Assembly: GCA_964410185.1 (NCBI GenBank)
Contig: CAYPFM010000001.1
Coordinates: 208,860-272,859, forward strand
Reading direction: 5' to 3'
DNA length: 64,000 nucleotides
Source: an uncultured Candidatus Saccharibacteria bacterium
Lineage (GTDB): Bacteria; Patescibacteriota; Saccharimonadia; Saccharimonadales; JAUPVS01
A program made the position numbers and the translations under genes. The notes beneath the pieces were generated by a model that did no database searches, had not been told where the DNA came from, and saw only the letters and a program-made list of their open reading frames with translations. Below are positions 34,894 to 49,730 of the stretch, piece by piece. The stretch's first letter is position 1, and each line of letters begins with the position of its first letter.

Positions 34894-35132
34894 CTTGATT
34901 TACTGGTGGGGACGGTGTCGGCTTATTTGAAACACGCCCATTAGAAGACATCCTAGCAGATATAGCAGTTGGCTGGAATGATACTCGGCGTATCATTGGT
35001 AATCTGCGGTCCGGCACAACACCTGAATTAAGTTATGTCCTATAAGAGGTCATGACTATAAGACGAAAGTGTTTGAAACAAACAATATGCTTATGCTATG
35101 TCATACGGCATACACGGACTAAAATAGTATGA

Positions 35133-36884
35133 ATGGCATACCATCTTATAAGCATAGGAATAGCGGCATACTCAAACCCAGCAAATAATCTGGACTTCCC
35201 TGATGACGATGCGGGCGAGCTAAGCGCCATCATGAGACACAGTTTGGGTAGTGAGCTTACTTACGATGCTTTGCTTAGAGACAGTGAGGCAACCCAAATA
35301 GGCATCAGGACTGCACTTGAGGCGGATGAGCTAAAGGGCGCTACTGCTGGTGATACGCTCATTGTTTATTATTCCGGTCACGGCGCTTTAGTGCAGAACA
35401 ACGGCAGCGGGGAGGCTTATCTTGCACCTTACGATGTAAGTGGCAATGTTGCAGTATCGGGCATCTCTACAACTGAGATAAAAGCATTGCTTGATAATCT
35501 TAACCACGGAAACAAAATCGTGCTGCTGGATTGCTGCTATAGCGGTGGAGCGAATGCAAAAAGCATCAGCCATGTTAAGCACAAAGATTTGACTAGCATC
35601 AAGGCATTTCAAAATCAGAGCTATGCCGAGGGGACTTTTGTGTTTACTGCCTGTAAAGAAGATGAAACTGCTATTGAAGTACAAGACCTTAAGCACGGGC
35701 TATTTACATACCAGCTTATTGAAGAGTTGGTTAAAGGCACTGGCGAGAGCGTTGCTTTGAGTAGTTTACATGACCCAGTCACTAAGGCGGTAGAGGAGAC
35801 TGCGAAGAAGTATTCGCACAAACAAACCCCTACTATACAGATGAACGCGAAGGGTAGTATGACACTACCAAAGCTGGCTAAGCCACCCGTACTAAAGCCC
35901 GAACTTATAAAAGTTCCGACAGTCCAAAACGAAAAGCCGACTGTCGTGGCTGCGCCACAGATTGATATTAGTGACAAAAAAACGCAGGAGCTTGTTCAAG
36001 CGACTATTAGTTTGATAGAAGGTGCATCTAACACTAAATTGGGTCAAATCACCTTTCGCTCAACACTAAGCAAGATACTAGCCATTGTTAAAGACGCACA
36101 TGCTGCTCAACCTAAGCATGTAAACAAAGCCGATGAAGTTGCCGTTTTAGTGGGTAAACTTGAGGCTAAGAGTTTTCAGCTCATGCTTACTGCTGCCGTG
36201 GTTTCTGTAGCTGGCAACGAACAAACTCTTAAGATTTTCAGCGAAGAGGTCGGAGAGATGCTGGTTTGGAAACGAGGTCAGAGCGGTCTCGTAGCCCTGA
36301 TTGAGATGCCTGACGTTATTTTCTTGGCAGTTCTATACATTATGTTCGTGTGCGCTATTTATACAGATGACTATATGCCCGTCGGCAAACTACTCAATAC
36401 CCATGTATACGACCAGTATAGCGGTCGTAGTGGGAGCTATAAGCGCGTTTCACAACACTACGAGATACACTACGCCGATGCTTTAGGCGGTAACGCAAAA
36501 ACCGTAATGACACATATTGTTGACCTGCTTACTTCGCAGGAGTGGCTACTTGAACTGCTTGGGATTAACAAGGAAAAATTAACAAGTCTCATACTCCAAG
36601 CAAACTTATGCCTATGCGTCGTGATGTCACGGAGCGGAGAACGCACATATCCGGGCTACAATGACTTTGAGCTTGCTAATGTTGCACCGTTCGTAAATCG
36701 CATACGCACAGACGAAACAACACGCACCAATGTAGCCAAGCACTTACTAGGGGCTAAGCAGGATGAAGTCGCGCAAATATTTGCGGATGAGGTTGCAAAG
36801 CTTAACCAATCTAGCGGTAGCCATTGGTGGAGCTACTTAAGACCAGAGAGCTTTACTCAAGATGTTGATTTGGAGCAAGACTAA
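35133..36884 (+). CDS. caspase-like (peptidase C14) protease with an unknown ~330-aa C-terminal domain
   Basis: His-Cys dyad context: LIVYYSGHGAL and IVLLDCCYSGG. I recognise nothing in the C-terminal 330 aa. Confidence 0.75.
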   Translation: MAYHLISIGIAAYSNPANNLDFPDDDAGELSAIMRHSLGSELTYDALLRDSEATQIGIRTALEADELKGATAGDTLIVYYSGHGALVQNNGSGEAYLAPYDVSGNVAVSGISTTEIKALLDNLNHGNKIVLLDCCYSGGANAKSISHVKHKDLTSIKAFQNQSYAEGTFVFTACKEDETAIEVQDLKHGLFTYQLIEELVKGTGESVALSSLHDPVTKAVEETAKKYSHKQTPTIQMNAKGSMTLPKLAKPPVLKPELIKVPTVQNEKPTVVAAPQIDISDKKTQELVQATISLIEGASNTKLGQITFRSTLSKILAIVKDAHAAQPKHVNKADEVAVLVGKLEAKSFQLMLTAAVVSVAGNEQTLKIFSEEVGEMLVWKRGQSGLVALIEMPDVIFLAVLYIMFVCAIYTDDYMPVGKLLNTHVYDQYSGRSGSYKRVSQHYEIHYADALGGNAKTVMTHIVDLLTSQEWLLELLGINKEKLTSLILQANLCLCVVMSRSGERTYPGYNDFELANVAPFVNRIRTDETTRTNVAKHLLGAKQDEVAQIFADEVAKLNQSSGSHWWSYLRPESFTQDVDLEQD

Positions 36885-36940
36885 GGTCATCCGTATTTTT
36901 TATAAGAAAATGGATAGCGTAAGTCTCCACTACCCTTGCT

Positions 36941-36998
36941 ATGGACACTCCGCTGTATAAGTACCCAATTTTTGGGGGTGAGTTGACCAACGCTTTTT
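36941..36998. repeat. direct repeat R1 (~58 nt)
   Basis: ATGGACACTCCGCTGTATAAGTACCCAATTTTTGGGGG...CCAACGCTTTTT, similar to R2 at 38638-38695. Confidence 0.7.
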
Positions 36999-37563
36999 AA
37001 ACTTCTAGCAACTTATCGCGTAAGCTATCAAACTTTGTATAACCAGCTCTTTTATTAAAGTGACCAGCATTAGGTATGAATGACAGTTCAACGCCTAAGT
37101 GTTTTGCTAACTCTTTGCCATTATCTAATCCAACATAAGGGTCATCATCAGACTGATATACAACGAAGTTTTCAGCATTTTGTTTAATTTTGTCCCAATC
37201 AAAATCAAAACCGCTAAAGGCATTATCACGGTCATAGTTCAGTATTGGTCTAACGCCTATTGGTGCGCCGACAAAGAATGCCGCTTTAATCGGGTGGTCT
37301 AGCTTTTCCAAGACACGAAGTGTAAAAATACCGCCTAAGCTATGTCCAACAATAATCGTGTCTTTGGTAATCTTATCATCGTACTCTTTCAGGACATCAA
37401 ACCATTCAGAAATCTTTGCGGGAACGACAGGCGGCGAAGGAAACTGCGGAACGGTAACTTCATAGCCTTTTGCTTCAAGCTCCTGCTTTAGCCAAGGAAA
37501 CCAATTTTCCTGCGGGTGTCCTTCTGTGCCATGAAATATAAATACGTTTGCTAGCTTGCTCAT
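36997..37563 (-). CDS. alpha/beta serine hydrolase (YdeN/RBBP9-like)
   Basis: 188 aa with a GHSLGG nucleophile elbow. Short single-domain hydrolase with a late Asp and His (DDDPYV, NAGHF). Confidence 0.7.
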   Translation of the reverse strand: MSKLANVFIFHGTEGHPQENWFPWLKQELEAKGYEVTVPQFPSPPVVPAKISEWFDVLKEYDDKITKDTIIVGHSLGGIFTLRVLEKLDHPIKAAFFVGAPIGVRPILNYDRDNAFSGFDFDWDKIKQNAENFVVYQSDDDPYVGLDNGKELAKHLGVELSFIPNAGHFNKRAGYTKFDSLRDKLLEV

Positions 37564-38081
37564 AGTAGCTCCTTTGCTGTTTGCAGAAATGCCAAGTCAC
37601 GCTTTTGTATGAATTGACCTTCTAGGTTGTCGGGCTTGTCCTGTAATAACAAGGCTATCGTATCATCTATGTCCTTGGCTTTTATTTCAAACATGCCTTC
37701 AGCAAGTTCACCTTCTTCTAGTGCTGATGCAACTTGCTCCCCAACTTGCTTAGCAAGATAGCAGTAGGATGTTTGTTCCAAGCCGCCATCATCGTAATTG
37801 CGGTATTCAACGACAGTGCCAAGTTCAGCTACAATTTCAGCCTTGCAGCCAACTTCTTCCATCAACTCACGCTCTAGTGCTTGTTTTATATCTTCGCCAT
37901 CGTCTATACCACCGCCAGGTAGCTTATGATAGCCGTGCTTACTTACATTGAGTAGGTAAACCTGACCGCTGTTATCAAGCAGAACTGCCCTAGCTGCACC
38001 TCTCTTTCTAAAAGTAGAAGTATCAACTACCGGGCTATTCCGTACGATGTCTTGTTCTTTGATAGTTAGCAGGTTCTTCAT
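37560..38081 (-). CDS. NUDIX hydrolase
   Basis: Nudix box GGGIDDGEDIKQALERELMEEVGC. A 4-nt overlap with the downstream hydrolase gene. Confidence 0.8.
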   Translation of the reverse strand: MKNLLTIKEQDIVRNSPVVDTSTFRKRGAARAVLLDNSGQVYLLNVSKHGYHKLPGGGIDDGEDIKQALERELMEEVGCKAEIVAELGTVVEYRNYDDGGLEQTSYCYLAKQVGEQVASALEEGELAEGMFEIKAKDIDDTIALLLQDKPDNLEGQFIQKRDLAFLQTAKELL

Positions 38082-38560
38082 TACATTGAACCTCTGGCAT
38101 TCTGGTCAACTAAGCCACCAATTACTACGGCAGAATAAATCTCTGTATCGCCGTCATAAATCCACTCATTAACGGTGTGGTCGGTAATATCACCTTCAAC
38201 AGTACTTTTATATGTCAGCTTATCTTTTTTATATTCAGCAGGACCACGATAGGGATTATCCTCACCCGGATGTTGCAACGCCTCACGCAGAAAGTCATAA
38301 ACTTCATCTGCTGGCTTATCTGTTTTCCCGTAATAAACTTCCATAAAAACAGGCTCGGTTTTATAAAATATCACTAAGCGCCCTCCGTATGGTTCGCCAC
38401 CAAAGAAGTTATCGTGCATGTGATAATCGCCGTCTGTAAACTCAATCGTTCGTGAACCGTCTTGCTCCTTAACGGTTTTAGCTGTTCCTGTTGCGTGAGG
38501 TATATTTGCCTTTATCAGAAATGCTTTTAGTTCATCAAGATTTACGCTTTGTGTATCCAT
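38081..38560 (-). CDS. hypothetical protein (first gene of the three-gene operon)
   Basis: Track ORF 38081..38686. I prefer the ATG at 38560 (MDTQSVNLDELKAF) because the longer form reads through repeat R2. A 1-nt overlap with the Nudix gene. Confidence 0.55.
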   Translation of the reverse strand: MDTQSVNLDELKAFLIKANIPHATGTAKTVKEQDGSRTIEFTDGDYHMHDNFFGGEPYGGRLVIFYKTEPVFMEVYYGKTDKPADEVYDFLREALQHPGEDNPYRGPAEYKKDKLTYKSTVEGDITDHTVNEWIYDGDTEIYSAVVIGGLVDQNARGSM

Positions 38561-38637
38561 AACTACATAATAACAGCGGTAACTTACAATATCTACCTGA
38601 AAAGGAATGGGGGCGGGGTCGCCCGTTAATCTGGTAA

Positions 38638-38695
38638 ATGGCACTCCGCTGTATAAATGCCTAATTTTTGGGAGCAAAATCGCCAAGCGTTTTTT
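38638..38695. repeat. direct repeat R2 (~58 nt)
   Basis: ATGGCACTCCGCTGTATAAATGCCTAATTTTTGGGAG...CCAAGCGTTTTTT. The first 20 nt are nearly identical to R1 and the remainder is roughly three-quarters identical, judged by eye. Confidence 0.7.
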
Positions 38696-38940
38696 GGCAA
38701 AAAAGGAATGCCGAATATTTGGGGCTGACTTTGAAAATGAGTTATATTAAGAGTACATATTAACAATCTATGTATTTCATGTAGCAGCCAATACGGAGAC
38801 GACCCGCTCAAAGACCGGGGCAGCACAATACATGAAATGTAAGTAAAACGAGATACGACCTCGGCAAAAAACGGACTTACGAGCGTGGCTAACGATGCCA
38901 TAGCGTACTTTTGTATGTTTGTGGCTTGGGAGTAAAACCG

Positions 38941-39090
38941 TGAGTGCCGTATCTCAAGAGCAAAGCGAGACTGAAAGCAGTCTTAAAGACCTGATTGATG
39001 TTCTACAAGAAATAGATACATCAAGCCCGATGGCTAAAACAAACGAACAATCAATAAGCGACAATAACGGCGGGAGGATTATTCTGTAAT
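38941..39090 (+). CDS. candidate small acidic protein upstream of recombinase A (below track cutoff)
   Basis: Frame open from 38893. GTG at 38941 (or TTG at 38911) to TAA at 39088-39090. ...SLKDLIDVLQEID... Confidence 0.25.
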
Positions 39091-39109
39091 CTAACGCTAT
39101 ACTTGCAAT

Positions 39110-40717
39110 ATGTACGATGAACAAGAGGTAGACTTAAAGACGCTTAAATATGTCATGTACCTTCGCAAATCCACTGAGGATGAAGGAAGACAGATTAGGT
39201 CTATTGGCGACCAAGAAAAAGATTGTAAAGATTTAGTTAAACGGCTAGGCCTAAATGTCATTGATACAATTAGAGAAGAAAAGTCGGCAAAAAAGCCCGG
39301 TCATCGCCCCGCTTTTCTAGACATGCTCAAACGAATAAGACGCAAAGAGTTTGATGCGATTATTGCTTGGCATCCAGACCGACTATCGCGCAATAGTATT
39401 GAAAGCGGCAAAATATTACACATGCTGGACACGGATGTTATAAAAGACATCCGTTTTGTTTCTCATCAGTTTTCAAATGATGCAAATGGCAAGATGCTTT
39501 TGGGGATGCTATTTGTGTTTAGTAAACATTATTCCGATGACCTTTCTTCTAAAGTTAAGCGAGGCGTAAGAGGCAACCTTCGTGACTATAAATCGGGTGG
39601 CACGCCAAAACATGGCTACATACGCGACAACGAGGGTATATACCGCATAGATGGTAAGAACTTTGAGATTATCCAGCGTGCTTGGCAAATGAGAGCTAAT
39701 GGCGAGAATATTCAAATGATATGCGACTTTATAAATGAGCAAGGTTATCAAAAGTTCTTCAAAAAAGAAGACAAAGGGCATCAGACATTTGTAATGACGG
39801 ATAGCGTACTTAGCAACCTTTTCAAAGACACCTTTTATTATGGTGAGCTTGTGCAATCCGATGAAGTCATAGATTTAGTAAAAGCACCTGTACCTTTTGA
39901 GCCTATGATTGACCGTGACACATATTTCAGGGCGCAAGAGTACGGCAGAACTAACCAACGAACCAGCAAAGGTCGTAAGCCAATATTGCCATTACGCTAT
40001 ATGGTGTATTGCTCGGTTTGCGAGTTTGATAGACCAATGCAGGTTGGTCGTTCAAGAGGACGAGATGGAGTTACTCGCTTATATTACAGATGTCTTAATA
40101 GCAAATGCACCAGAGCGTACGGCAGTAGAAGTATTAGAGGCAAGCTAGTTTTTGACGAGATTGACCGAGTTATTAAAGAAAAACTAGAAAGTCTTCCGCC
40201 GGAGGCATATGACAAATACATTAAGGAAGTAAAAACTTATAGCACAACCGCCAAGACGAAAATCAGAGCCGACTTAACTAGAGCTAAAGCTACGCGAAAT
40301 GGTTACGAGGAAAGAGTTATTAAGTTGTCTACATCACTTGATTTAATTTCTAACAAGACAGCACTCAAGACAATTACAGACCAAATTAGCGAGGCAACTC
40401 AAGAGATGAACAGACTAGACCAAGCTATCAAAAAATATCAGAATGATATAGAGAAGGCTACTTTGCCTAAGATTGACCGCAAAGAGTTCGAAAGCACTAT
40501 TTCTCAACTGGGCGCTAAGCTAAAAGCAGCGGATGTGGTTCAAAAGGACATAATTGCTAGTAATTTGTTTTTGAACCTATATTTTGACCATCAAAAAATG
40601 ACGCACTACTCCTTAAAAGAGCCGTTCGCGTCATTAGTTGAGTTAAATGCAATCCAACTTGGTGGGGGTGGTTGGAATCGAACCAACTACCAAGTGGTTA
40701 TGAGCCGCCTGCTCTAA
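39110..40717 (+). CDS. large serine recombinase/integrase; last ~16 codons are antisense tRNA sequence
   Basis: YLRKSTEDE...DRLSRN resolvase catalytic domain, recombinase domain, zinc ribbon (CSVCEF...YYRCLNSKC) and coiled coil. The ORF crosses the att core at 40660. Confidence 0.85.
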   Translation: MYDEQEVDLKTLKYVMYLRKSTEDEGRQIRSIGDQEKDCKDLVKRLGLNVIDTIREEKSAKKPGHRPAFLDMLKRIRRKEFDAIIAWHPDRLSRNSIESGKILHMLDTDVIKDIRFVSHQFSNDANGKMLLGMLFVFSKHYSDDLSSKVKRGVRGNLRDYKSGGTPKHGYIRDNEGIYRIDGKNFEIIQRAWQMRANGENIQMICDFINEQGYQKFFKKEDKGHQTFVMTDSVLSNLFKDTFYYGELVQSDEVIDLVKAPVPFEPMIDRDTYFRAQEYGRTNQRTSKGRKPILPLRYMVYCSVCEFDRPMQVGRSRGRDGVTRLYYRCLNSKCTRAYGSRSIRGKLVFDEIDRVIKEKLESLPPEAYDKYIKEVKTYSTTAKTKIRADLTRAKATRNGYEERVIKLSTSLDLISNKTALKTITDQISEATQEMNRLDQAIKKYQNDIEKATLPKIDRKEFESTISQLGAKLKAADVVQKDIIASNLFLNLYFDHQKMTHYSLKEPFASLVELNAIQLGGGGWNRTNYQVVMSRLL

Positions 40718-40735
40718 CCGATGAGCTACACCCCC
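40660..40735 (-). tRNA. tRNA with CAU anticodon, most like tRNA-Ile2 (lysidine type); tRNA-Met not excluded
   Basis: GGGGGTGTAGCTCATCGGTTAGAGCAGGCGGCTCATAACCACTTGGTAGTTGGTTCGATTCCAACCACCCCCACCA folds as a cloverleaf of 76 nt with CCA encoded. The anticodon arm and variable region resemble E. coli ileX as I remember it. Confidence 0.8.
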
Positions 40736-42793: not shown

Positions 42794-42993
42794 CCATTAT
42801 TACCGAAGTTAATAATAAACACAAGCGGAAATGAAATGGTAGCCATAGATAGAATTACTTGGAACTTAATTAAGACTGAACTGATTAGTATGTCCCAAAT
42901 CGTCACAATGTACGATAAACATTATCGGGGGTTAGCCTAAGCGGACGTACTAGAACCCCTGAAAGAGCTATAAGCATTAGCATAACATTTTAT

Positions 42994-43021
42994 TTGATAT
43001 GTCAATATTCTCTAGTACAAT
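42994..43021 (+). promoter_or_regulatory. promoter TTGATA-16-TACAAT
   Basis: Upstream of the ORF at 43045, which has a gaggga RBS. Confidence 0.45.
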
Positions 43022-43044
43022 GGTAAGTAAACCGAGGGACGCAC

Positions 43045-45042
43045 ATGAGAATTAGCCACGTTGAGATAGAAAACTACCGATCAATCGAAAAGATTGAGCT
43101 AAGAGTGCTTGACCCGACCATAGCCTGTTTTATTGGAGGGAATGGTAGTGGAAAATCAAACATCTTAAGAGCTATTGCTGCAATGAAGACTGGTCAAAAG
43201 TTTGATGATGACGATTTTTATGTTGAGGCAGGCGAGGAAGATGAGATTAAAGTATCGCTTACATTTATTCTGGAAAAATCAGACTTAGAGCTTTTAGAGC
43301 CGATTGGGCTAAAGTCACAACACGTAAGCGGGTTTAAGGTTACGAAAGTACAGAAGCTTGGGCAGAAACACACCGTATATGCTGAGTTACTAGGTTATGA
43401 CAATGTATTAGAAAAGCGACTTGAGAGTAAGCTTAATGTCATTACGCGTGCCATATCGGCGCAACTGAAACCTGAAGACGACCAAGAAGCCCATCTTAAG
43501 TTGAGCGCGACGATTCGTAACAGTGAAGAAACTAAAGAAGTAATAGACGCTAGTATTGTCAGTCTGATAACCACCCTTAAGCAATATGTGCCAGATGTCT
43601 CTACGCTGGGCATCGACGAGAAAGAACTTGAAGCTTTGGCAAACTTTAAACAGCCCAATTTTGCATACAAAGACCTGTTTGGTGCTATTGATATAGAGCT
43701 ACTTTCACTCGACGACTATCAAATAGCAAATGAGGCTCCCATTGAAGAGCTCCAAGTTAGAGATAGTCATCCTTTCCTATTTGACCTACTCTCCATATCT
43801 GGGAAGTCTGCTACTGACTTTTTGAATGCTGAGGGCAATAAAAAAATCAATATCTCAGAACAGGCTTCAGAACAACTTACCGATACAATGCAGAAAGTTT
43901 GGGGGTCTCATGGGCTACCGCTCGTCGTTCACAAAGATAAGAAGGACACGACCCTATCATTCTGTAGCAGGACGCCAAACCAGAAGGCGATTCCTTTAGA
44001 GAGTGCGAGTAAGGGTACACAATGGTTTCTTCGATTTTACACGAGACTAATAACTGCAAGGAATCACTCGAAGCGTATTATTTGGCTTTTTGATGAGCCA
44101 GACCTTGGTCTTCATGCAAAGTCCCAACAGGACTTAGTGAAACTCATTGAGGAACAGTCTGGCGACTCCCAAATACTATATTCAACGCATCAACCAATAA
44201 TGATTCAATGGCATCGTCTAGAACGTATTCATGTTGTTGAGAACGTCCCGAAGGTAAAACAGGAAAAGTTTGGAAAGGGTACAAAGGTACATCAACGGTT
44301 CTGGGATGATGGGGATTTTGACTCGCCTCTTAAAGAGGTGTTAAAGCTATTTATTGGTGAAGATATTCTCTGGACAAAGGAACATGTGGTTGTCGAAGGC
44401 CCTTCAGATTACTTCTACTTTGTGGGCTGGGCTAATCGTTTTGCCAACGATAATCCAAATGCAAAAATCTGGAATGATGAGTTCTCTTCTCCAAGCAGAG
44501 CTTTTGTTCCGGCCGGTAGTATCACTAACATCCCTCTCTTCTTATTCTTTCTCACAAAGAGGAATGGCGCAGAAACTGTAAACTGGGCGTCTATAACTGA
44601 CACAGGGAAAGATCACAGTGATATTAAGCAGGTAATAAATAGTACATCTCGCCTAAAAAGGTTTAGCGACCGAGTTATTGAATTGCAGAGGCCTGAAGGG
44701 GAGAAACTTGATAAAGACTTTGACGTTGAAGATCTTTTTGACCGACAAGAGTTCTACGACAAGGCAGCAGAGTACTATGCAGCTACGTATCCAGACTGCA
44801 AATTCCCAAACTATAAGGACTTAGCTAAACAAGAAAAAATAACCAAAACCTTAACTTCACAGCTAAAGAAACTTAACAAAGAGAAGATGCCTAACATATC
44901 GTTTGATAAGCCTGGTGTGGCTCAGTATATATACTCCCAGCTAGTGGTTGAAAACAAACCATTCTCGGAAGTATCTTTAAAGAACTTTAGATCGACGCTT
45001 AATGCAATCAATAGGGCATTTAGTCTTGACCCAACTGATTAG
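43045..45042 (+). CDS. OLD-family nuclease: ABC-type ATPase fused to a TOPRIM-like domain (class 1 OLD or fused PARIS-like)
   Basis: Walker A GGNGSGKS, signature-like SKGTQ, Walker B IIWLFDEPDLGLH and H-loop YSTHQP. This is followed by HVVVEGPSDYFYF (TOPRIM/DUF4435-type Glu). Confidence 0.7.
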   Translation: MRISHVEIENYRSIEKIELRVLDPTIACFIGGNGSGKSNILRAIAAMKTGQKFDDDDFYVEAGEEDEIKVSLTFILEKSDLELLEPIGLKSQHVSGFKVTKVQKLGQKHTVYAELLGYDNVLEKRLESKLNVITRAISAQLKPEDDQEAHLKLSATIRNSEETKEVIDASIVSLITTLKQYVPDVSTLGIDEKELEALANFKQPNFAYKDLFGAIDIELLSLDDYQIANEAPIEELQVRDSHPFLFDLLSISGKSATDFLNAEGNKKINISEQASEQLTDTMQKVWGSHGLPLVVHKDKKDTTLSFCSRTPNQKAIPLESASKGTQWFLRFYTRLITARNHSKRIIWLFDEPDLGLHAKSQQDLVKLIEEQSGDSQILYSTHQPIMIQWHRLERIHVVENVPKVKQEKFGKGTKVHQRFWDDGDFDSPLKEVLKLFIGEDILWTKEHVVVEGPSDYFYFVGWANRFANDNPNAKIWNDEFSSPSRAFVPAGSITNIPLFLFFLTKRNGAETVNWASITDTGKDHSDIKQVINSTSRLKRFSDRVIELQRPEGEKLDKDFDVEDLFDRQEFYDKAAEYYAATYPDCKFPNYKDLAKQEKITKTLTSQLKKLNKEKMPNISFDKPGVAQYIYSQLVVENKPFSEVSLKNFRSTLNAINRAFSLDPTD

Positions 45043-45124
45043 CCTTTAGGATACTAGCTTCTATTTCCGCTAAAAGCTCAAAATATTCAACAAGCACAGC
45101 TAGTTCCTCGTCGCTTAGTTTCAT
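45020..45124 (-). CDS. candidate 34-aa protein translationally coupled to the upstream membrane protein
   Basis: ATGA start/stop overlap at 45121-45124. Translation MKLSDEELAVLVEYFELLAEIEASILKANQLGQD. Confidence 0.35.
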   Translation of the reverse strand: MKLSDEELAVLVEYFELLAEIEASILKANQLGQD

Positions 45125-45549
45125 TGGGTGCTATCGGGAGCTGTAAGTACTGGTGGCTCTGGTATTGTTGGTAGCTGTTGTCGGGTGCCTTCAGATTCAC
45201 TTATCGTTCTGTCCAGATCAGCTTGTGAGACAGTGAGCCAAGCGCCCATCGTAAGACCGTAGGCTAAAAGGATAAAGAGTATTGGCTTAAGAATGCGCCA
45301 CCACATTTTGGGCTTTGGTTTGCCAGAGCGTTTGCGAATGTAATAGTTCGCGGCGAGGATGGTAATAACGAGAAGCCCAACACGAGTAAAAGGGAAAATG
45401 GGGTAAAGCCACTGATGGGTAGCGTTTTCAACTTGAGCTACAATCGTTTCAAAGCCAAAGTTCACTAACAGGAAAATGCCGAAAGCCGCAGAATAAACCT
45501 TAACTCTACTCACTTTTTGTTTGGGTTTTGGGGAGCTGTCGTCCGTCAT
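45121..45549 (-). CDS. hypothetical membrane protein (3-4 TM helices)
   Basis: 142-aa ORF with a ggagga RBS upstream. Confidence 0.55.
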   Translation of the reverse strand: MTDDSSPKPKQKVSRVKVYSAAFGIFLLVNFGFETIVAQVENATHQWLYPIFPFTRVGLLVITILAANYYIRKRSGKPKPKMWWRILKPILFILLAYGLTMGAWLTVSQADLDRTISESEGTRQQLPTIPEPPVLTAPDSTQ

Positions 45550-45587
45550 GGCTGATCCTCCATTATGTTATTAATGGGGAGGCCTGA

Positions 45588-45616
45588 ATAAAAAAGGACA
45601 ACCCCTCTAGGTTGTC
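45588..45616 (-). terminator. intrinsic terminator inside the leader of the 45549 gene
   Basis: gacaacc / ggttgtc 7-bp perfect stem (45597-45616). The T-run falls on the minus strand (plus-strand ataaaaaa at 45588-45595). Confidence 0.5.
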
Positions 45617-45757
45617 TACACCAGCACAAGGTTGTACCCTGTGTTTTTCGAGAGGTTGCCCATTGTTGGGTACAACCAATCAAAGATTGGCTTTCACAAG
45701 CTTGTACTGATGTAGACCCCATAATAATAACAGAGAAGTTACTTCAAAATCATCACG

Positions 45758-46261
45758 GTGTATGATGTTCCTATGGCTAAACAGGTGAAGGATAAAAAAT
45801 GGCGTATAATTCGCCCACCGTTAGGAACTGGGTTCTATCTTCCAACAAGGGAAGATTTACTTAAGATAAAGCGGGGCGATGTCGTGAAACTCATCTTTCA
45901 GGCAGGCGAAGACGCACCCGAAAGGATGTGGGTTCAAGTAGAAAAATGTGGAGACTCTGAGCACTGGACTGGACGGCTTGATAATGACCCTGCGCAAGAA
46001 TACTTGGCCTCAGTACTAAAATACAAAGATGTAATTCGCTTTCACCCGCTTGATGTTATTAATATTGATTCCGAAAATAAAGTTCCAGAAGAGCCGAGCA
46101 TTGAACAGATTATAGATAAAAAACTAGGTGACGTTATCAACAGCGTGAACAGGCCGTGGTATAAAAACCCTAACATCATGGTACCGGCTGCCGCCACAAT
46201 CATTGTTGGCCTGCTAAGTGCAGTCGTAACTCTAATCGCTGCTCTCATTAATAAACACTGA
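45758..46261 (+). CDS. hypothetical protein with C-terminal TM anchor (possibly DUF2314-like)
   Basis: 167 aa. ERMWVQVEKCGDSEHWTGRLDNDP pattern. C-terminal helix AATIIVGLLSAVVTLIAALI. Confidence 0.45.
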   Translation: MYDVPMAKQVKDKKWRIIRPPLGTGFYLPTREDLLKIKRGDVVKLIFQAGEDAPERMWVQVEKCGDSEHWTGRLDNDPAQEYLASVLKYKDVIRFHPLDVINIDSENKVPEEPSIEQIIDKKLGDVINSVNRPWYKNPNIMVPAAATIIVGLLSAVVTLIAALINKH

Positions 46262-46531
46262 ACAGAGGTAGATTCTAGGTACACTTGCTTTGTCTCTACG
46301 CGCGAGCGTCTTCACCCCCCCTGCATAGTAGGGGGGTAGGCGTCGTACATTGTCTGATAATGTGCGATGACTATTGAAGCTAACGCATGTTGCAAAAGAA
46401 CTTTTGCGACTTGCTCCGCGCGAATAGCCGGTGTAATTATGTACCCCCACCTTCTCTTTTGTTTTTCCTTCTTCTCTACTTGGTGCACACACAAAATTTT
46501 TTTCTAGGGCAAAGTGTTTAATAATTAGGGC

Positions 46532-46996
46532 ATGACTGCGAATAATAACGGCAAGGTAGTAACCCAAGCACAGCTAGTGCGCATGACTTACATGAAGTTG
46601 TTAGAGCTGGAAGTTAAGTTTGACTTACTTGACACAAAACTTGAAAGCCTCCAGCAAGACGTAAGTAGGAATGTGTTCGTACGTAGTGAGTTAATTAAAA
46701 CTAGATTTGACCACAGGACAAACGAGCTTTATATCACGGAGCACTTTAAGATACCTTTTGAGGGTAACGAAGCCGCTCTGCTAGCCGTCATGTTTAAGAA
46801 GTCTACTGGCCAGCCTAAGAGAACAACCAAGTTCTATCCAGCAGAGCTTGCCGGTACGTTCCAAGACGCCACAGATGGTCTTAAAACACCTAAGGCAATA
46901 CACGGAACGATTGTCAGGATTGATTCAAGCATTAAGCACAGAACAATGGGCTTAGAGGTCTTTAAGATTACAACTAAAGTTTTCTATTTTTTGTAG
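46532..46996 (+). CDS. hypothetical protein
   Basis: 154-aa ORF with an N-terminal coiled-coil-like segment. Confidence 0.5.
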   Translation: MTANNNGKVVTQAQLVRMTYMKLLELEVKFDLLDTKLESLQQDVSRNVFVRSELIKTRFDHRTNELYITEHFKIPFEGNEAALLAVMFKKSTGQPKRTTKFYPAELAGTFQDATDGLKTPKAIHGTIVRIDSSIKHRTMGLEVFKITTKVFYFL

Positions 46997-47053
46997 CACC
47001 CCCTAGTAAGTTCGCGTGAGTTCACTTGCTATCGGTTTTGTTTAAATGGGCAA

Positions 47054-47233
47054 ATGCTATTTAGAGCAAACCAAGCCATCCCGATTTCAGAAGCTCGTGA
47101 GCTACTAGGCGACGAGAGCGACAGTATGACCGACGAAGAAGTGTTAAGGCTGATTGAAGACTTTGACATCATTGCACAGTACACAATTAAATTAGTTCAA
47201 AAGTTTAAACAAAATAAAGCCACAACAGGTTAA
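47054..47233 (+). CDS. candidate 59-aa protein upstream of recombinase B (below track cutoff)
   Basis: MLFRANQAIPISEARELLGDESDSMTDEEVLRLIEDFDIIAQYTIKLVQKFKQNKATTG. Ends 24 nt before the recombinase ATG. Confidence 0.4.
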   Translation: MLFRANQAIPISEARELLGDESDSMTDEEVLRLIEDFDIIAQYTIKLVQKFKQNKATTG

Positions 47234-47257
47234 TATAATGTTAAAATAGTTCTAAGT

Positions 47258-48808
47258 ATGAATAGTGTTGTATATGTCAGGGTATCAACAGACGAGCAAG
47301 TGCTGGGCACGAGCTTAGATATGCAACAAAAACAGTGTTTAGAGTTTGCAAAGGCGCATGGCTGGAACGTACCGAAGGAAAATGTCTTTCGCGATGAGGG
47401 CGAATCAGCAAAGGCTACCAATCGGCCGAAGCTTCTCGCCATGCTTGAGCATTGTCGCAAGAACAAACGCAAAATTGAAAAGTGTATTGTTTGGAAGTTA
47501 GATAGGTTTGCTCGCAACTCTGACGATCATGTAATGATACGTGCCATACTGCGCAAGAATGGCGTATCACTCGTGTCCGTTACCGAGCCTATTGATGACA
47601 GCCCGACCGGCAAACTTATGGAAACGGTGCTTTCAGGCTTCGCGCAGTTTGATAATGAAGTCAGAACACACCGAACAACGGAAGGAATGAAAAGACGCCT
47701 TGAGCAGGGCGGGTGGCCGCATGACGCACCTATTGGTTATATAAAGGCGCGCACTCGTGAGGGCGTAACAACCATCGCTCCGCACTCAGAAATGGCACCA
47801 AAGCTCACACTCTTTTTAGAAACATTTTCAACCGGCCAATACACCGTCAGACAAGCAACTGACCTCGCCTATGAATTAGGTATACGAAACGGTAAAGGTG
47901 AAAAGCGAACATGGCAAACAATTGAAAACACTATCAAGAACCCGATTTACGCTGGGTACATTCAGTCTAAGTACACAGACGGCAATCGCTACGTTGGCTT
48001 GCACGAGGCGTTGATTAGCGAAGCAACCTTTAACAAGAACCAGAGTATCCTTGTTGGTAAACAAAAAGTGTTTACCCGCAGTGACGAGGGTGACTATCCA
48101 TTACGGCGAGACTTTTTACGCTGCATACACTGCGGTAAATTCGTAACTGCGAGTGCGCCAAAAGGGGCAAGCGGTATTAAGTACCCACGGTATAGCTGTA
48201 TTAATTGCAAGACATCGGTAATTGGTAAAAAGGTCAGCAAATCAAGCGAAGAGATTCATAAAGAGTTCCGTGAGGTATTGTCACGAATCCGCTACAAGGA
48301 AAACAGGCTCAAAGTTTTCAAACGTATTGTGTTGCAGCGTTGGTGCGATGAGTATGATGACGCGCTCAAGGCAGCCTATCAAGTTAATAAAGAGCTTGAA
48401 ACCTTGCAGACCGAACGCGCCAAGGTTAATCGCAAGTTCGCCCGCGATGAGTATACGTTTACCGAGAAGCAGGAATTAATCAGAGACATTGACGCCGAAA
48501 TCGTAGACTACATGAAGAAAAAAGTTGAAGCCGACGAGTATGCCAATCAAAAGGAGCAAATCATTGATAATGCCATGCTGTTCATGAACGAGCCATCAGA
48601 GTTCTGGAACAGAGCACCATTACAGATACAAAAGGCAGTACAGCATACACTTTTCCCGCATGGTTTGGCCTATGACTTTGAAAATGGCTTTGGAACTATT
48701 GAGCTGAACGAGTCGTATCTGTTGCTACAAAAAATAGCGCCCGAAGACGCTAATGGTTCTATTGTGGTAGCGGCGACAAGATTTGAACTTGTGACCCCAG
48801 GCTTATGA
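47258..48808 (+). CDS. large serine recombinase/integrase; last ~11 codons are antisense tRNA sequence
   Basis: VYVRVSTDEQ...DRFARN catalytic domain, recombinase domain, zinc ribbon (CIHCGK...YSCINC) and coiled coil. The ORF crosses the att core at 48765. Confidence 0.85.
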   Translation: MNSVVYVRVSTDEQVLGTSLDMQQKQCLEFAKAHGWNVPKENVFRDEGESAKATNRPKLLAMLEHCRKNKRKIEKCIVWKLDRFARNSDDHVMIRAILRKNGVSLVSVTEPIDDSPTGKLMETVLSGFAQFDNEVRTHRTTEGMKRRLEQGGWPHDAPIGYIKARTREGVTTIAPHSEMAPKLTLFLETFSTGQYTVRQATDLAYELGIRNGKGEKRTWQTIENTIKNPIYAGYIQSKYTDGNRYVGLHEALISEATFNKNQSILVGKQKVFTRSDEGDYPLRRDFLRCIHCGKFVTASAPKGASGIKYPRYSCINCKTSVIGKKVSKSSEEIHKEFREVLSRIRYKENRLKVFKRIVLQRWCDEYDDALKAAYQVNKELETLQTERAKVNRKFARDEYTFTEKQELIRDIDAEIVDYMKKKVEADEYANQKEQIIDNAMLFMNEPSEFWNRAPLQIQKAVQHTLFPHGLAYDFENGFGTIELNESYLLLQKIAPEDANGSIVVAATRFELVTPGL

Positions 48809-48841
48809 GTCCTGTGCTCTAACCAACTGAGCTACGCCGCC
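48765..48841 (-). tRNA. elongator tRNA-Met (CAU)
   Basis: GGCGGCGTAGCTCAGTTGGTTAGAGCACAGGACTCATAAGCCTGGGGTCACAAGTTCAAATCTTGTCGCCGCTACCA, 77 nt with CCA encoded. The D arm and variable region are near-identical to E. coli elongator tRNA-Met as I remember it. Confidence 0.8.
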
Positions 48842-48994
48842 ACGGGGTTCCGGGTTGAGGAACAGATGTGAATATACCATGTTTTGCCTCTGTTGGCTAG
48901 CCAGTACGCGAGATTTGTTCGCCTTAGCGCGTATTACTTGCTATAATGTAATTCCAGTATGATTGCTGGAAAAAACATCATAATTTTGTCAACA

Positions 48995-49017
48995 AACGCC
49001 TCGTCTGAGGCGTTTTT
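48995..49017 (+). terminator. intrinsic terminator within the leader of ORF 49043
   Basis: aacgcctc-gtct-gaggcgtt hairpin followed by TTTTT. Confidence 0.5.
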
Positions 49018-49042
49018 CTTATTAAAAATGGAGGTGTAAGTT

Positions 49043-49357
49043 ATGACGATGGAAGCAGACCGTGTTGGACAAGAAGGCAGGAATTTTAATGCCGACGTGC
49101 ATGTAGCGCTCCAGTATCTGAAAGAACAGTGCGCCTGCCCAGATCCGGCACTTGCATTTGATCCGTCCGCAGCCCGGGCTGATCTTGACTGGTTGCAGCC
49201 GCTTGGCGACCCCAACTCAGAGGCCTCCAAGAGGTACAACGCTGCGATTAGTGCTTTTGCGCGAGGTAGCGCGACGCCAGAACAGCAAGCCCTCATCATT
49301 CAGACCGAAGAGATAAAAGGGGCATTTGGAGCCTTACAGGATAAGCCTCGTACATAA
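49043..49357 (+). CDS. hypothetical protein
   Basis: 104-aa ORF with a ggaggtg RBS. Confidence 0.45.
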   Translation: MTMEADRVGQEGRNFNADVHVALQYLKEQCACPDPALAFDPSAARADLDWLQPLGDPNSEASKRYNAAISAFARGSATPEQQALIIQTEEIKGAFGALQDKPRT

Positions 49358-49655: not shown

Positions 49656-49730
49656 CGCGGGGTGGAGCAGTGGCAGCTCGCGTGGCTCATAACCACGAGG
49701 TCGCAGGTTCGAGTCCTGCCCCCGCTACCA
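49656..49730 (+). tRNA. initiator tRNA-fMet (CAU)
   Basis: CGCGGGGTGGAGCAGTGGCAGCTCGCGTGGCTCATAACCACGAGGTCGCAGGTTCGAGTCCTGCCCCCGCTACCA. The 1:72 pair is unpaired (C/U). The first 15 nt are identical to E. coli tRNA-fMet as I remember it. CCA encoded. Confidence 0.85.

Follow-up and report, generated by a model that had tools for sequence, protein, structure and literature searches.

Here we report a small mobile element, element B, at positions 42837-48771 of a 64,000-nucleotide stretch of DNA (the window) from an uncultured Candidatus Saccharibacteria bacterium (GenBank assembly GCA_964410185.1, contig CAYPFM010000001.1, positions 208,860 to 272,859 of the forward strand). These coordinates are exact, and relatives contain the corresponding empty sites. 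Element B is very probably a small integrative cargo island with a large serine integrase, whose chromosomal attachment site (attB) is the 3' end of an elongator-like tRNA-Met gene. Its integrase belongs to a large and apparently undescribed clade whose members likewise target the 3' ends of tRNA genes and which is limited neither to small-genome bacteria nor to CAU tRNAs. The native integrase gene spans the attachment site of the free element (attP), with its last 25-35 residues, which include a conserved W-N...E-L helix, encoded at the opposite (attL) end of the integrated element; integration thus swaps a native tail of about 30 residues for 14 residues from the antisense strand of the tRNA.

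Boundaries, target and empty sites

The features that define the element and its target are as follows (window coordinates; related loci are given L numbers throughout).

42836..42940, plus strand, P' arm of attP and native C-terminal tail of the integrase (MVAIDRITWNLIKTELISMSQIVTMYDKHYRGLA, then a stop codon), sharing the integrase frame in the excised circle only
42837..42843, plus strand, attL core TGGTAGC and left boundary, where conservation between elements starts and which is the single core in the empty sites of L007 and L008
47258..48808, plus strand, predicted large serine integrase in its integrated form, 516 amino acids (aa), with Resolvase and Recombinase Pfam matches and the final 14 residues (VVAATRFELVTPGL) from the core and the tRNA antisense strand
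48733..48764, plus strand, P arm of attP, formed by the 3' end of the integrase coding sequence (attP reconstructions of 24 elements and the real attP of L057)
48765..48771, plus strand, attR core TGGTAGC, antisense of the tRNA 3' end GCTACCA
48765..48841, minus strand, target tRNA-Met(CAU), 77 nt, intact and elongator-like (ARAGORN), whose acceptor and T arms contain the B' arm of attB

With one copy of the core counted, element B measures 5,928 bp. The original prediction, made from the window sequence alone, had placed its ends at two copies of TGGTAGC, the right one complementary to the 3' end of an intact tRNA-Met, and both copies are present; the right one is the antisense of the final 7 nt of the 77-nt gene. 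The window contains 18 copies of TGGTAGC, and chance would place a plus-strand copy within 10 kb upstream with p ~0.71, so the heptamer repeat alone is no evidence of boundaries. No longer direct repeat, not even an imperfect one such as the displaced tRNA fragment of tyrosine-integrase islands, was found at element B, where identity ends at 7 bp. What makes the boundaries decisive is the evidence from other genomes, namely empty sites and sequence conservation that starts at the core.

Relatives without element B were identified by a homology search with the left-flank protein. In L007 (flank protein 87% identical), the left flank of the window (..AACACAAGCGGAATGAACG) is followed by TGGTAGC and directly by the tRNA, and L008 (flank protein 67% identical) contains a complete empty site with both flanks syntenic with the window. 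In both loci, position 42836 is joined to 48772 through a single copy of the core, which is the junction that had been proposed as a check; the neighbouring element A is absent from them too. Presence/absence polymorphism is therefore observed at a precise site with the target restored, since L007 and L008 are empty and the tRNA is intact when occupied.

The closest homologues of the recombinase (88-89% identical), in the Saccharibacteria loci L001 (complete genome CP023991.1) and L003, both run into a 77-nt tRNA-Met. The window, L001 and L003 all have a second TGGTAGC upstream, to the right of which the sequence is conserved (CATnnATAGAA..TTGGAACTTAATTAAG..); to its left the sequences are unrelated, as are the cargo genes (MerR and oxidoreductase genes in L001, GmrSD-like and DUF4238 genes in L003). 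In the window, L001/L014, L003, L009, L011-L013, L016 and L026, likeness starts exactly at the core and the cargo differs. The original prediction would have been abandoned if comparative data had shown no presence/absence polymorphism, or a core that is not conserved in homologous elements; both objections fail because empty sites exist and the core is conserved among homologous elements with different cargo. The tRNA itself was ruled out as part of the element, as the elements cease to resemble each other at the core, and the body of the tRNA varies with the host.

The remaining structural claims for element B were also borne out. The interior is AT-richer than its surroundings, with a G + C content of 0.431 as compared with 0.497 and 0.467 in the flanks (0.500 for the window minus both elements). 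The gene order is cargo, small open reading frame (ORF; 47054-47233), recombinase and tRNA, and the recombinase, as the last gene, extends 44 nt into the tRNA gene, which lies on the other strand.

The window contains three CAU tRNA genes as identified by ARAGORN (40660-40735, minus strand; 48765-48841, minus strand; 49656-49730, plus strand). By comparison with reference sequences of Escherichia coli, the target tRNA is most similar to the elongator tRNA-Met, which serves as a lead only; the label "elongator" is plausible. In L009, a tRNA identical to the target is the site of a related element. At the base of the anticodon stem, the elongator-like tRNA-Met (window 48765-48841 and the tRNAs of L009-L024) has an A31-G39 mismatch, which is kept across Saccharibacteria species although the stem differs (e.g. 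CAGGA/GCCTG and TCGGA/GCCGA). The initiator tRNA (C1xU72; 49656-49730) lies on the opposite strand, 815 bp from the occupied elongator tRNA, and is vacant in the window; the same site is used by related elements in L016 and L026. A small gene between the elongator and initiator tRNAs (48934-49357) is also kept in L008.

The integrase and its split gene

The integrase matches Resolvase (PF00239; 1.7e-34, residues 4-153) and Recombinase (PF07508) in Pfam. Residues R8 and S10 (catalytic) are invariant among 31 homologues, CxxC pairs are located at residues 289 and 314, the phage integrase family phrog_95 covers residues 3-453, and the C-terminal domain of the A118 integrase (4kis) aligns with residues 215-439. 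The catalytic serine, the recombinase domain, the zinc ribbon with an embedded coiled coil and the short att sites identify the enzyme, at the level of sequence, as a large serine recombinase. Membership of the Ccr group was rejected (97.5 bits for CcrB and 46 for CcrC against NCBIfam cut-offs of 900 each; the target is a tRNA and not rlmH), as were an XisF-type identity (by NCBIfam comparison) and an IS607-type serine transposon (the integrase has 516 aa with a Recombinase domain, and the target is strictly the tRNA 3' end).

A free-form homologue (P0088) was modelled with AlphaFold2, with a mean predicted local distance difference test score (pLDDT) of 82.5. The model consists of catalytic, recombinase, zinc-ribbon and coiled-coil parts followed by an additional C-terminal module; the strand-rich zinc-ribbon region precedes two long helices (350-446), and the residues encoded by the core form a low-confidence linker, after which comes a terminal helix of 27 residues.

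Translated in the integrase frame, the sequence at the upstream core of the window yields MVAIDRITWNLIKTELISMSQIVTMYDKHYRGLA and a stop codon, with close likeness in nine relatives. Tails of the W-N...E-L type ([LVM]V..x3-5..W-N-x-h-x-x-E-L-h..) are found at attL in 24 elements located at Met, Glu, Ser, Gln, Ala, Val and Asn tRNAs, and those at non-Met tRNAs are recognisable though the integrases are only 33-46% identical. In 10 close elements, the tail frame is open over 28-34 codons and the other two frames contain one to six stops; variable sites are distributed over the codon positions as 13/9/18, and the pairwise codon differences comprise 242 synonymous and 358 non-synonymous ones. The native gene thus spans attP, and the integrase ORF runs into the tRNA because attP lies inside its frame and its end is replaced upon integration.

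At attL (window 42836-42838), the host flank contributes the first base of an nTG codon, which shares its frame with the tail ORF that integration leaves orphaned. The codon reads ATG in the window and in L011; seven relatives have TTG, L089 has GTG and L021 has CTG. Separate translation of the tail peptide from this codon would be possible.

Attachment sites and free circular forms

Comparison of attL and attR in 24 elements yielded a minimum shared core of 6 bp (TGGnnn), which corresponds to CCA, the discriminator base and tRNA positions 72-71; in the window the core extends to 7 bp, and the longest core in other elements reaches 12 bp. Because this stretch of 6-7 bp is common to attP and attB, integration restores an intact tRNA. 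An inverted repeat (TTCTAT at 48755-48760 in the P arm, ATAGAA at 42850-42855 in the P' arm) lies 8-13 bp either side of the inferred centre. In the 24 reconstructed attP sites, dyad symmetry peaks between core bases 5 and 6 (0.366 as compared with a background of ~0.25), and a 2-bp crossover at the A-G of TGGT[AG]C (tRNA positions 72-71) is therefore the most likely candidate. As the elements share no conserved host sequence downstream of the tRNA, recognition of attB probably relies on the tRNA half-site, which would explain how the clade has moved between tRNA species. At L089 (170-240, minus strand), attL is located at a contig end and the host-side flank (AAATTCTATCG), just past a terminator hairpin, resembles the P arm; this likeness may be accidental, may have been left by an earlier element, or may mark a natural attB of greater symmetry.

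Relatives of element B also occur as free circles. L090 is a circular contig of 4,444 bp (30-nt terminal overlap) without a tRNA, in which a 538-aa ORF closes across the ends and which holds an intact integrase of 542 aa with its native tail. L057 is a contig of 5,509 bp whose 55-nt terminal overlap gives a circle of 5.45 kb, likewise with an intact integrase gene. It shares 99% identity with the L053 element, which occupies a tRNA-Glu gene, and the permutation between the two breaks exactly at TGGTAG, so that the attP of L057 consists of the left side of the L053 attR, the core and the right side of the L053 attL.

Junctions of P arm, core and P' arm are also present within the tandem arrays of L004 and L005. 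Tandem or stacked elements were observed in four loci (L004, 4110-11431; L005, 3983-9463; L011, at 2003 and 2438; L042, at 138 and 1116). In L004, one integrase runs across the P-core-P' junction into a second complete element at the tRNA; in L005, only an ORF of 77 aa runs into the tRNA, perhaps what is left of a second element after decay; and in both L011 and L042 two attL-type ends follow one another. As attL and attR are not expected targets of serine integrases, the formation of such arrays is puzzling.

A clade of integrases at tRNA 3' ends

A scan of one genome per species (185,579 species) recovered 445 relatives of the integrase, of which the best 80 (31-89% identical) were examined. 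The reading frame stops inside an antisense tRNA gene in 70 of these 80, nearly always in the same frame (nTG GTn); among the other 10, four run off the contig and three of the remaining six carry a native tail. The targets, counted as loci, are tRNA-Met(CAU) (22), Glu (18), Ala (12), Arg (5), Lys (5), Ser (3), and Asn, Trp, Gln, Leu and Val (1 each). Among the 120 best database homologues, 109 have a tail that fits a simple motif for translation of the antisense strand of a tRNA (acceptor and T arm), e.g. ..VVAATGIEPVTSGL. A search with the C-terminal 63 residues against 1.84 billion representative proteins returned 58 matches, mostly fragments at contig ends, and was no help in sizing the clade.

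The original prediction of a family of serine integrases specific for tRNA 3' ends thus holds for 70 of 80 relatives and 109 of 120 homologues, and the clade extends beyond CAU tRNAs and small-genome bacteria. The metagenome-assembled genomes (MAGs) with relatives bear the labels Saccharibacteria, other candidate-phyla groups, Acidobacteriota, Verrucomicrobiota, Omnitrophica, Chloroflexi and Nitrospira, and mis-binning may account for some of these labels. Contigs with typical Saccharibacteria-type elements and tRNAs were found in MAGs labelled Limnocylindria, Nevskiaceae and Aquaspirillum (L010, L013, L057); they look like mis-binned mobile DNA, and the host labels of distant loci therefore need care. 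In the literature searched, which was incomplete and left subscription journals mostly outside, no prior description was found of this clade (in Saccharibacteria or Patescibacteria) or of a serine integrase gene that spans attP.

Within the CAU group, integrases at least 44% identical to that of element B are located at an elongator-like tRNA, except for the subclade of L016 and L026 (68-70%), which uses the initiator tRNA (identified from a C1xU72 or C1xA72 mismatch). Integrases with 35-41% identity are mostly found at an Ile2-like CAU tRNA; L048 and L052 were not clearly assignable. These isotype labels are based on comparison with E. coli sequences and are leads only.

Cargo and backbone genes

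The other genes of element B are listed below.

43045..45042, plus strand, 665-aa ABC-type ATPase, OLD/AriA/GajA-like cargo (Pfam AAA_15, 1.4e-25, and AAA_21)
45121..45549, minus strand, 142-aa predicted membrane protein, backbone of the close clade (copies 40-69% identical in L001/L014, L009, L011, L013, L016 and L018)
45758..46261, plus strand, 167-aa ORF, element-specific, with no copies in related loci
46532..46996, plus strand, 154-aa ORF, backbone of the close Met clade (60-73% identical, same position, in 10 related elements)
47054..47233, plus strand, 59-aa ORF directly 5' of the integrase gene, with a small ORF in the same place across the clade

The backbone common to the relatives thus consists of the 142-aa membrane ORF, the 154-aa ORF, the 59-aa ORF and the integrase. 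None of the 59-, 154-, 142- and 167-aa ORFs had a family match in Pfam, PHROGs, NCBIfam or PADLOC. Just upstream of the integrase, the motif (I/L)(S/T)VxEARxLLG...M(T/S)DEE...LI is found clade-wide, including elements at Glu, Arg and Gln tRNAs and in other phyla, and we regard the 59-aa ORF as a candidate accessory protein that may serve as a recombination directionality factor or as a regulator.

The cargo ATPase, which resembles OLD and AriA, is probably an anti-phage defence gene. In PADLOC it matched AriA (1e-28) and also Old and GajA (range 1e-28 to 1e-19), with NCBIfam scores far under the cut-offs; the Toprim model gave no match, yet a VVVEGPSD motif is visible in the sequence, and no AriB-like neighbour was found by PADLOC. 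A copy 84% identical is present in L026, in an element at the initiator tRNA.

The cargo of the 24 delimited elements includes restriction-modification genes, OLD-like ATPases, DUF4238 proteins, a KAP NTPase and genes for detoxification or stress. Virion (capsid, tail, terminase) and conjugation families were absent from the 25 most frequent Pfam families of the 146 cargo ORFs in these elements, and in element B only the integrase and the ATPase matched PHROGs (for the ATPase, families of unknown function), with none for the other ORFs. Four cargo ORFs are tyrosine recombinases (Phage_integrase) within serine-integrase elements and two are excisionase-like (HTH_17); they may be nested or captured elements.

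Proposed mechanism and alternatives

In the mechanism that we propose, strands would be exchanged at the 2-bp A-G crossover within the shared core, attB would be recognised mainly via the tRNA half-site, and the upstream small ORF would act as the directionality or regulatory partner. After integration, the tail swap and convergent transcription of the tRNA over the 3' end of the integrase gene would alter the activity or the level of the integrase. Such a change might amount to a state switch, in which the tail helix of the free circle is needed for, or biases, recombination of attP with attB, whereas integration removes the helix, adds a tRNA-antisense peptide, and silences or re-tunes the enzyme (e.g. 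for excision dependent on the small ORF). We put this switch forward tentatively, as a possibility that is more doubtful than the identity of the element.

Several points weigh against the account given here. The position of the crossover rests on a modest symmetry peak, and transfer machinery was not found. The tail helix has a pLDDT of 40-62 in the P0088 model, which predicts no docking site for it, and the conservation of the tail may partly be a DNA-level constraint on the P' arm, where TTGGAAC is nearly invariant. In metagenomes, the sole match to the attP junction of element B (YCTATYGTGGTAGCCATNRATAGR) was L089, an attL with a P-like flank and not a circle, and the junction pattern had no match in viral contigs. 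The integrases of the circular relatives are only 35% and 46% identical to that of element B, and a circular assembly can also come from a tandem array.

The points concerning the tail would be accommodated if the overlap of integrase frame and attP had no function, the tail being kept as DNA (a P' half-site and outward promoter) and both forms of the enzyme being alike. TTGGAAC is almost invariant in the DNA of very distant members, the modelled helix is of low confidence and without contacts, and integrated copies keep intact frames without the native tail. Against this stand the tail frame as the sole open one (28-34 codons) in all 10 close elements, the synonymous variation of Ile, Lys and Thr codons with third positions varying most, and the amphipathic W-N-x-h-x-x-E-L-h pattern, which survives at 31-36% integrase identity despite DNA divergence. 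On balance, we consider a functionless overlap rather unlikely.

It is improbable that the copy of element B in the window is fixed, having lost excision together with its integrase tail, and that it spreads only by transformation and homologous recombination of the tRNA region. Integration does part the tail from the enzyme, Saccharibacteria are naturally competent, and the attP junction of element B was not found in the public data scanned; on the other side are the circular forms of relatives, integrated integrase genes that are overwhelmingly intact and of full length, and closely related integrases found at more than one CAU tRNA and in varying chromosomal surroundings.

A decayed prophage, a phage satellite or the remnant of a conjugative element would agree with the match of the integrase to the phage family phrog_95 and with serine-recombinase prophages reported at tRNA-Met in Paracoccus (PMC6536676). 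Such an origin is made very improbable by the lack of PHROG matches beyond the integrase and the ATPase, by the absence of capsid, tail, terminase and conjugation families from the most frequent Pfam families of the cargo, and by the small size of the elements (3.3-11 kb; complete circles of 4.4 and 5.45 kb). Finally, a chance 7-bp match next to a resident invertase or resolvase that abuts the tRNA without any mobile element, which the frequency of the heptamer (18 copies in the window; p ~0.71) would allow, has a negligible probability, as it is already refuted by the exact empty sites of L007 and L008, by conservation that starts at the core between unrelated flanks and cargo, and by the matched circular and integrated copies of a relative.

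Relation to known systems

The predicted integrative island shares with the integrases of A118/LI, phiC31, Bxb1 and TP901-1 the order of catalytic domain, recombinase domain and zinc ribbon with coiled coil, the short att sites with a small core (6-7 bp here), and the location of the integrase at the edge of the element by attP. The targets of those integrases are protein genes or intergenic regions, whereas here the target is a tRNA 3' end, attP lies within the integrase frame, and the C-terminus differs between the free and the integrated form. The A118-like region is followed here by an additional C-terminal module of ~60 residues and the tail helix, and in contrast to the elements of temperate-phage integrases, the elements of this clade are cargo islands of 3-11 kb with no virion genes among the commonest cargo families.

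SCCmec (CcrAB/CcrC) is also a small cargo island, served by large serine recombinases and inserted at the extreme 3' end of a conserved housekeeping gene that is kept active, and SCC elements likewise have variable cargo and form tandem or composite arrays (here L004, L005, L011 and L042). They differ in using rlmH and a pair of recombinases, as compared with a tRNA and one recombinase whose gene spans attP, and in their hosts, which here are Saccharibacteria, other candidate-phyla bacteria, Acidobacteriota and others. The tRNA islands of tyrosine integrases (P4, Islander class) have in common with element B the tRNA 3' end as target, the restoration of the tRNA and an integrase that adjoins it. 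Their recombinase is unrelated, however, and their identity segments extend over tens of bp instead of 6-7 bp; in our elements, moreover, the flank beyond the tRNA is not conserved.

An attP inside a gene is known from two systems with tyrosine integrases. In SSV1-type elements, attP lies inside the integrase gene, which is split in the gene body. Mycobacteriophage BPs has integration-dependent immunity with attP inside a coding gene (PMC4557955). The likeness comprises an attP in a coding gene of the element, a C-terminus changed or removed by integration and possibly a built-in integration sensor. The gene affected is the repressor in BPs and the body of the integrase is split in SSV1, whereas in the present clade the exchange is confined to the terminal 25-35 residues of a serine integrase, which give way to a peptide from the tRNA antisense strand.

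Serine recombinases at tRNA genes have been reported for Paracoccus phage vB_PamS_Pami6, predicted at tRNA-Met (PMC6536676), and for 14 islands in the TIGER study by Mageeney et al. (PMC7192596). By their descriptions these cases are set apart from the present clade, being single predictions without a family description, att anatomy or split gene. As tRNA genes are regarded as the territory of tyrosine integrases, a large and broad clade of serine integrases is an exception, for which the searchable literature offers isolated, unverified cases only.

The split gene provides a testable hypothesis on how serine integrases sense and control direction, which is relevant to their use as genome-engineering tools. 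If the state switch is true, it would be a mechanism of directionality or regulation new for serine integrases, in a clade that would use the near-universal CCA and T-arm geometry across tRNA species and phyla. Possible genetic tools include landing sites with 6-7 bp of identity in genes of every bacterium, with matched attP, attB, attL and attR sites readable from the data; they could help in Saccharibacteria and other candidate-phyla bacteria, where such tools are scarce. The defence and stress cargo and the stacking at tRNA genes make these elements a plausible route of gene movement in reduced genomes.

Element A

A second element, element A (34904-40735), is located 2.1 kb from element B. 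Its recombinase ORF (39110-40717) runs 58 nt into an Ile2-like CAU tRNA (40660-40735). The original prediction had described the two recombinases as clearly diverged and as targeting two different CAU tRNAs, with which the alignment agrees: they share 29% identity over the N-terminal 178 aa only. Element A is of the same design with an unrelated serine integrase. The upstream copy of its core (TGGTGGGG at 34904) lies just past a MATCAP-like gene, and its cargo includes a caspase-like Peptidase_C14 protein (35133-36884). In L007, where element A is absent, the gene order is MATCAP, tRNA and DivIC.

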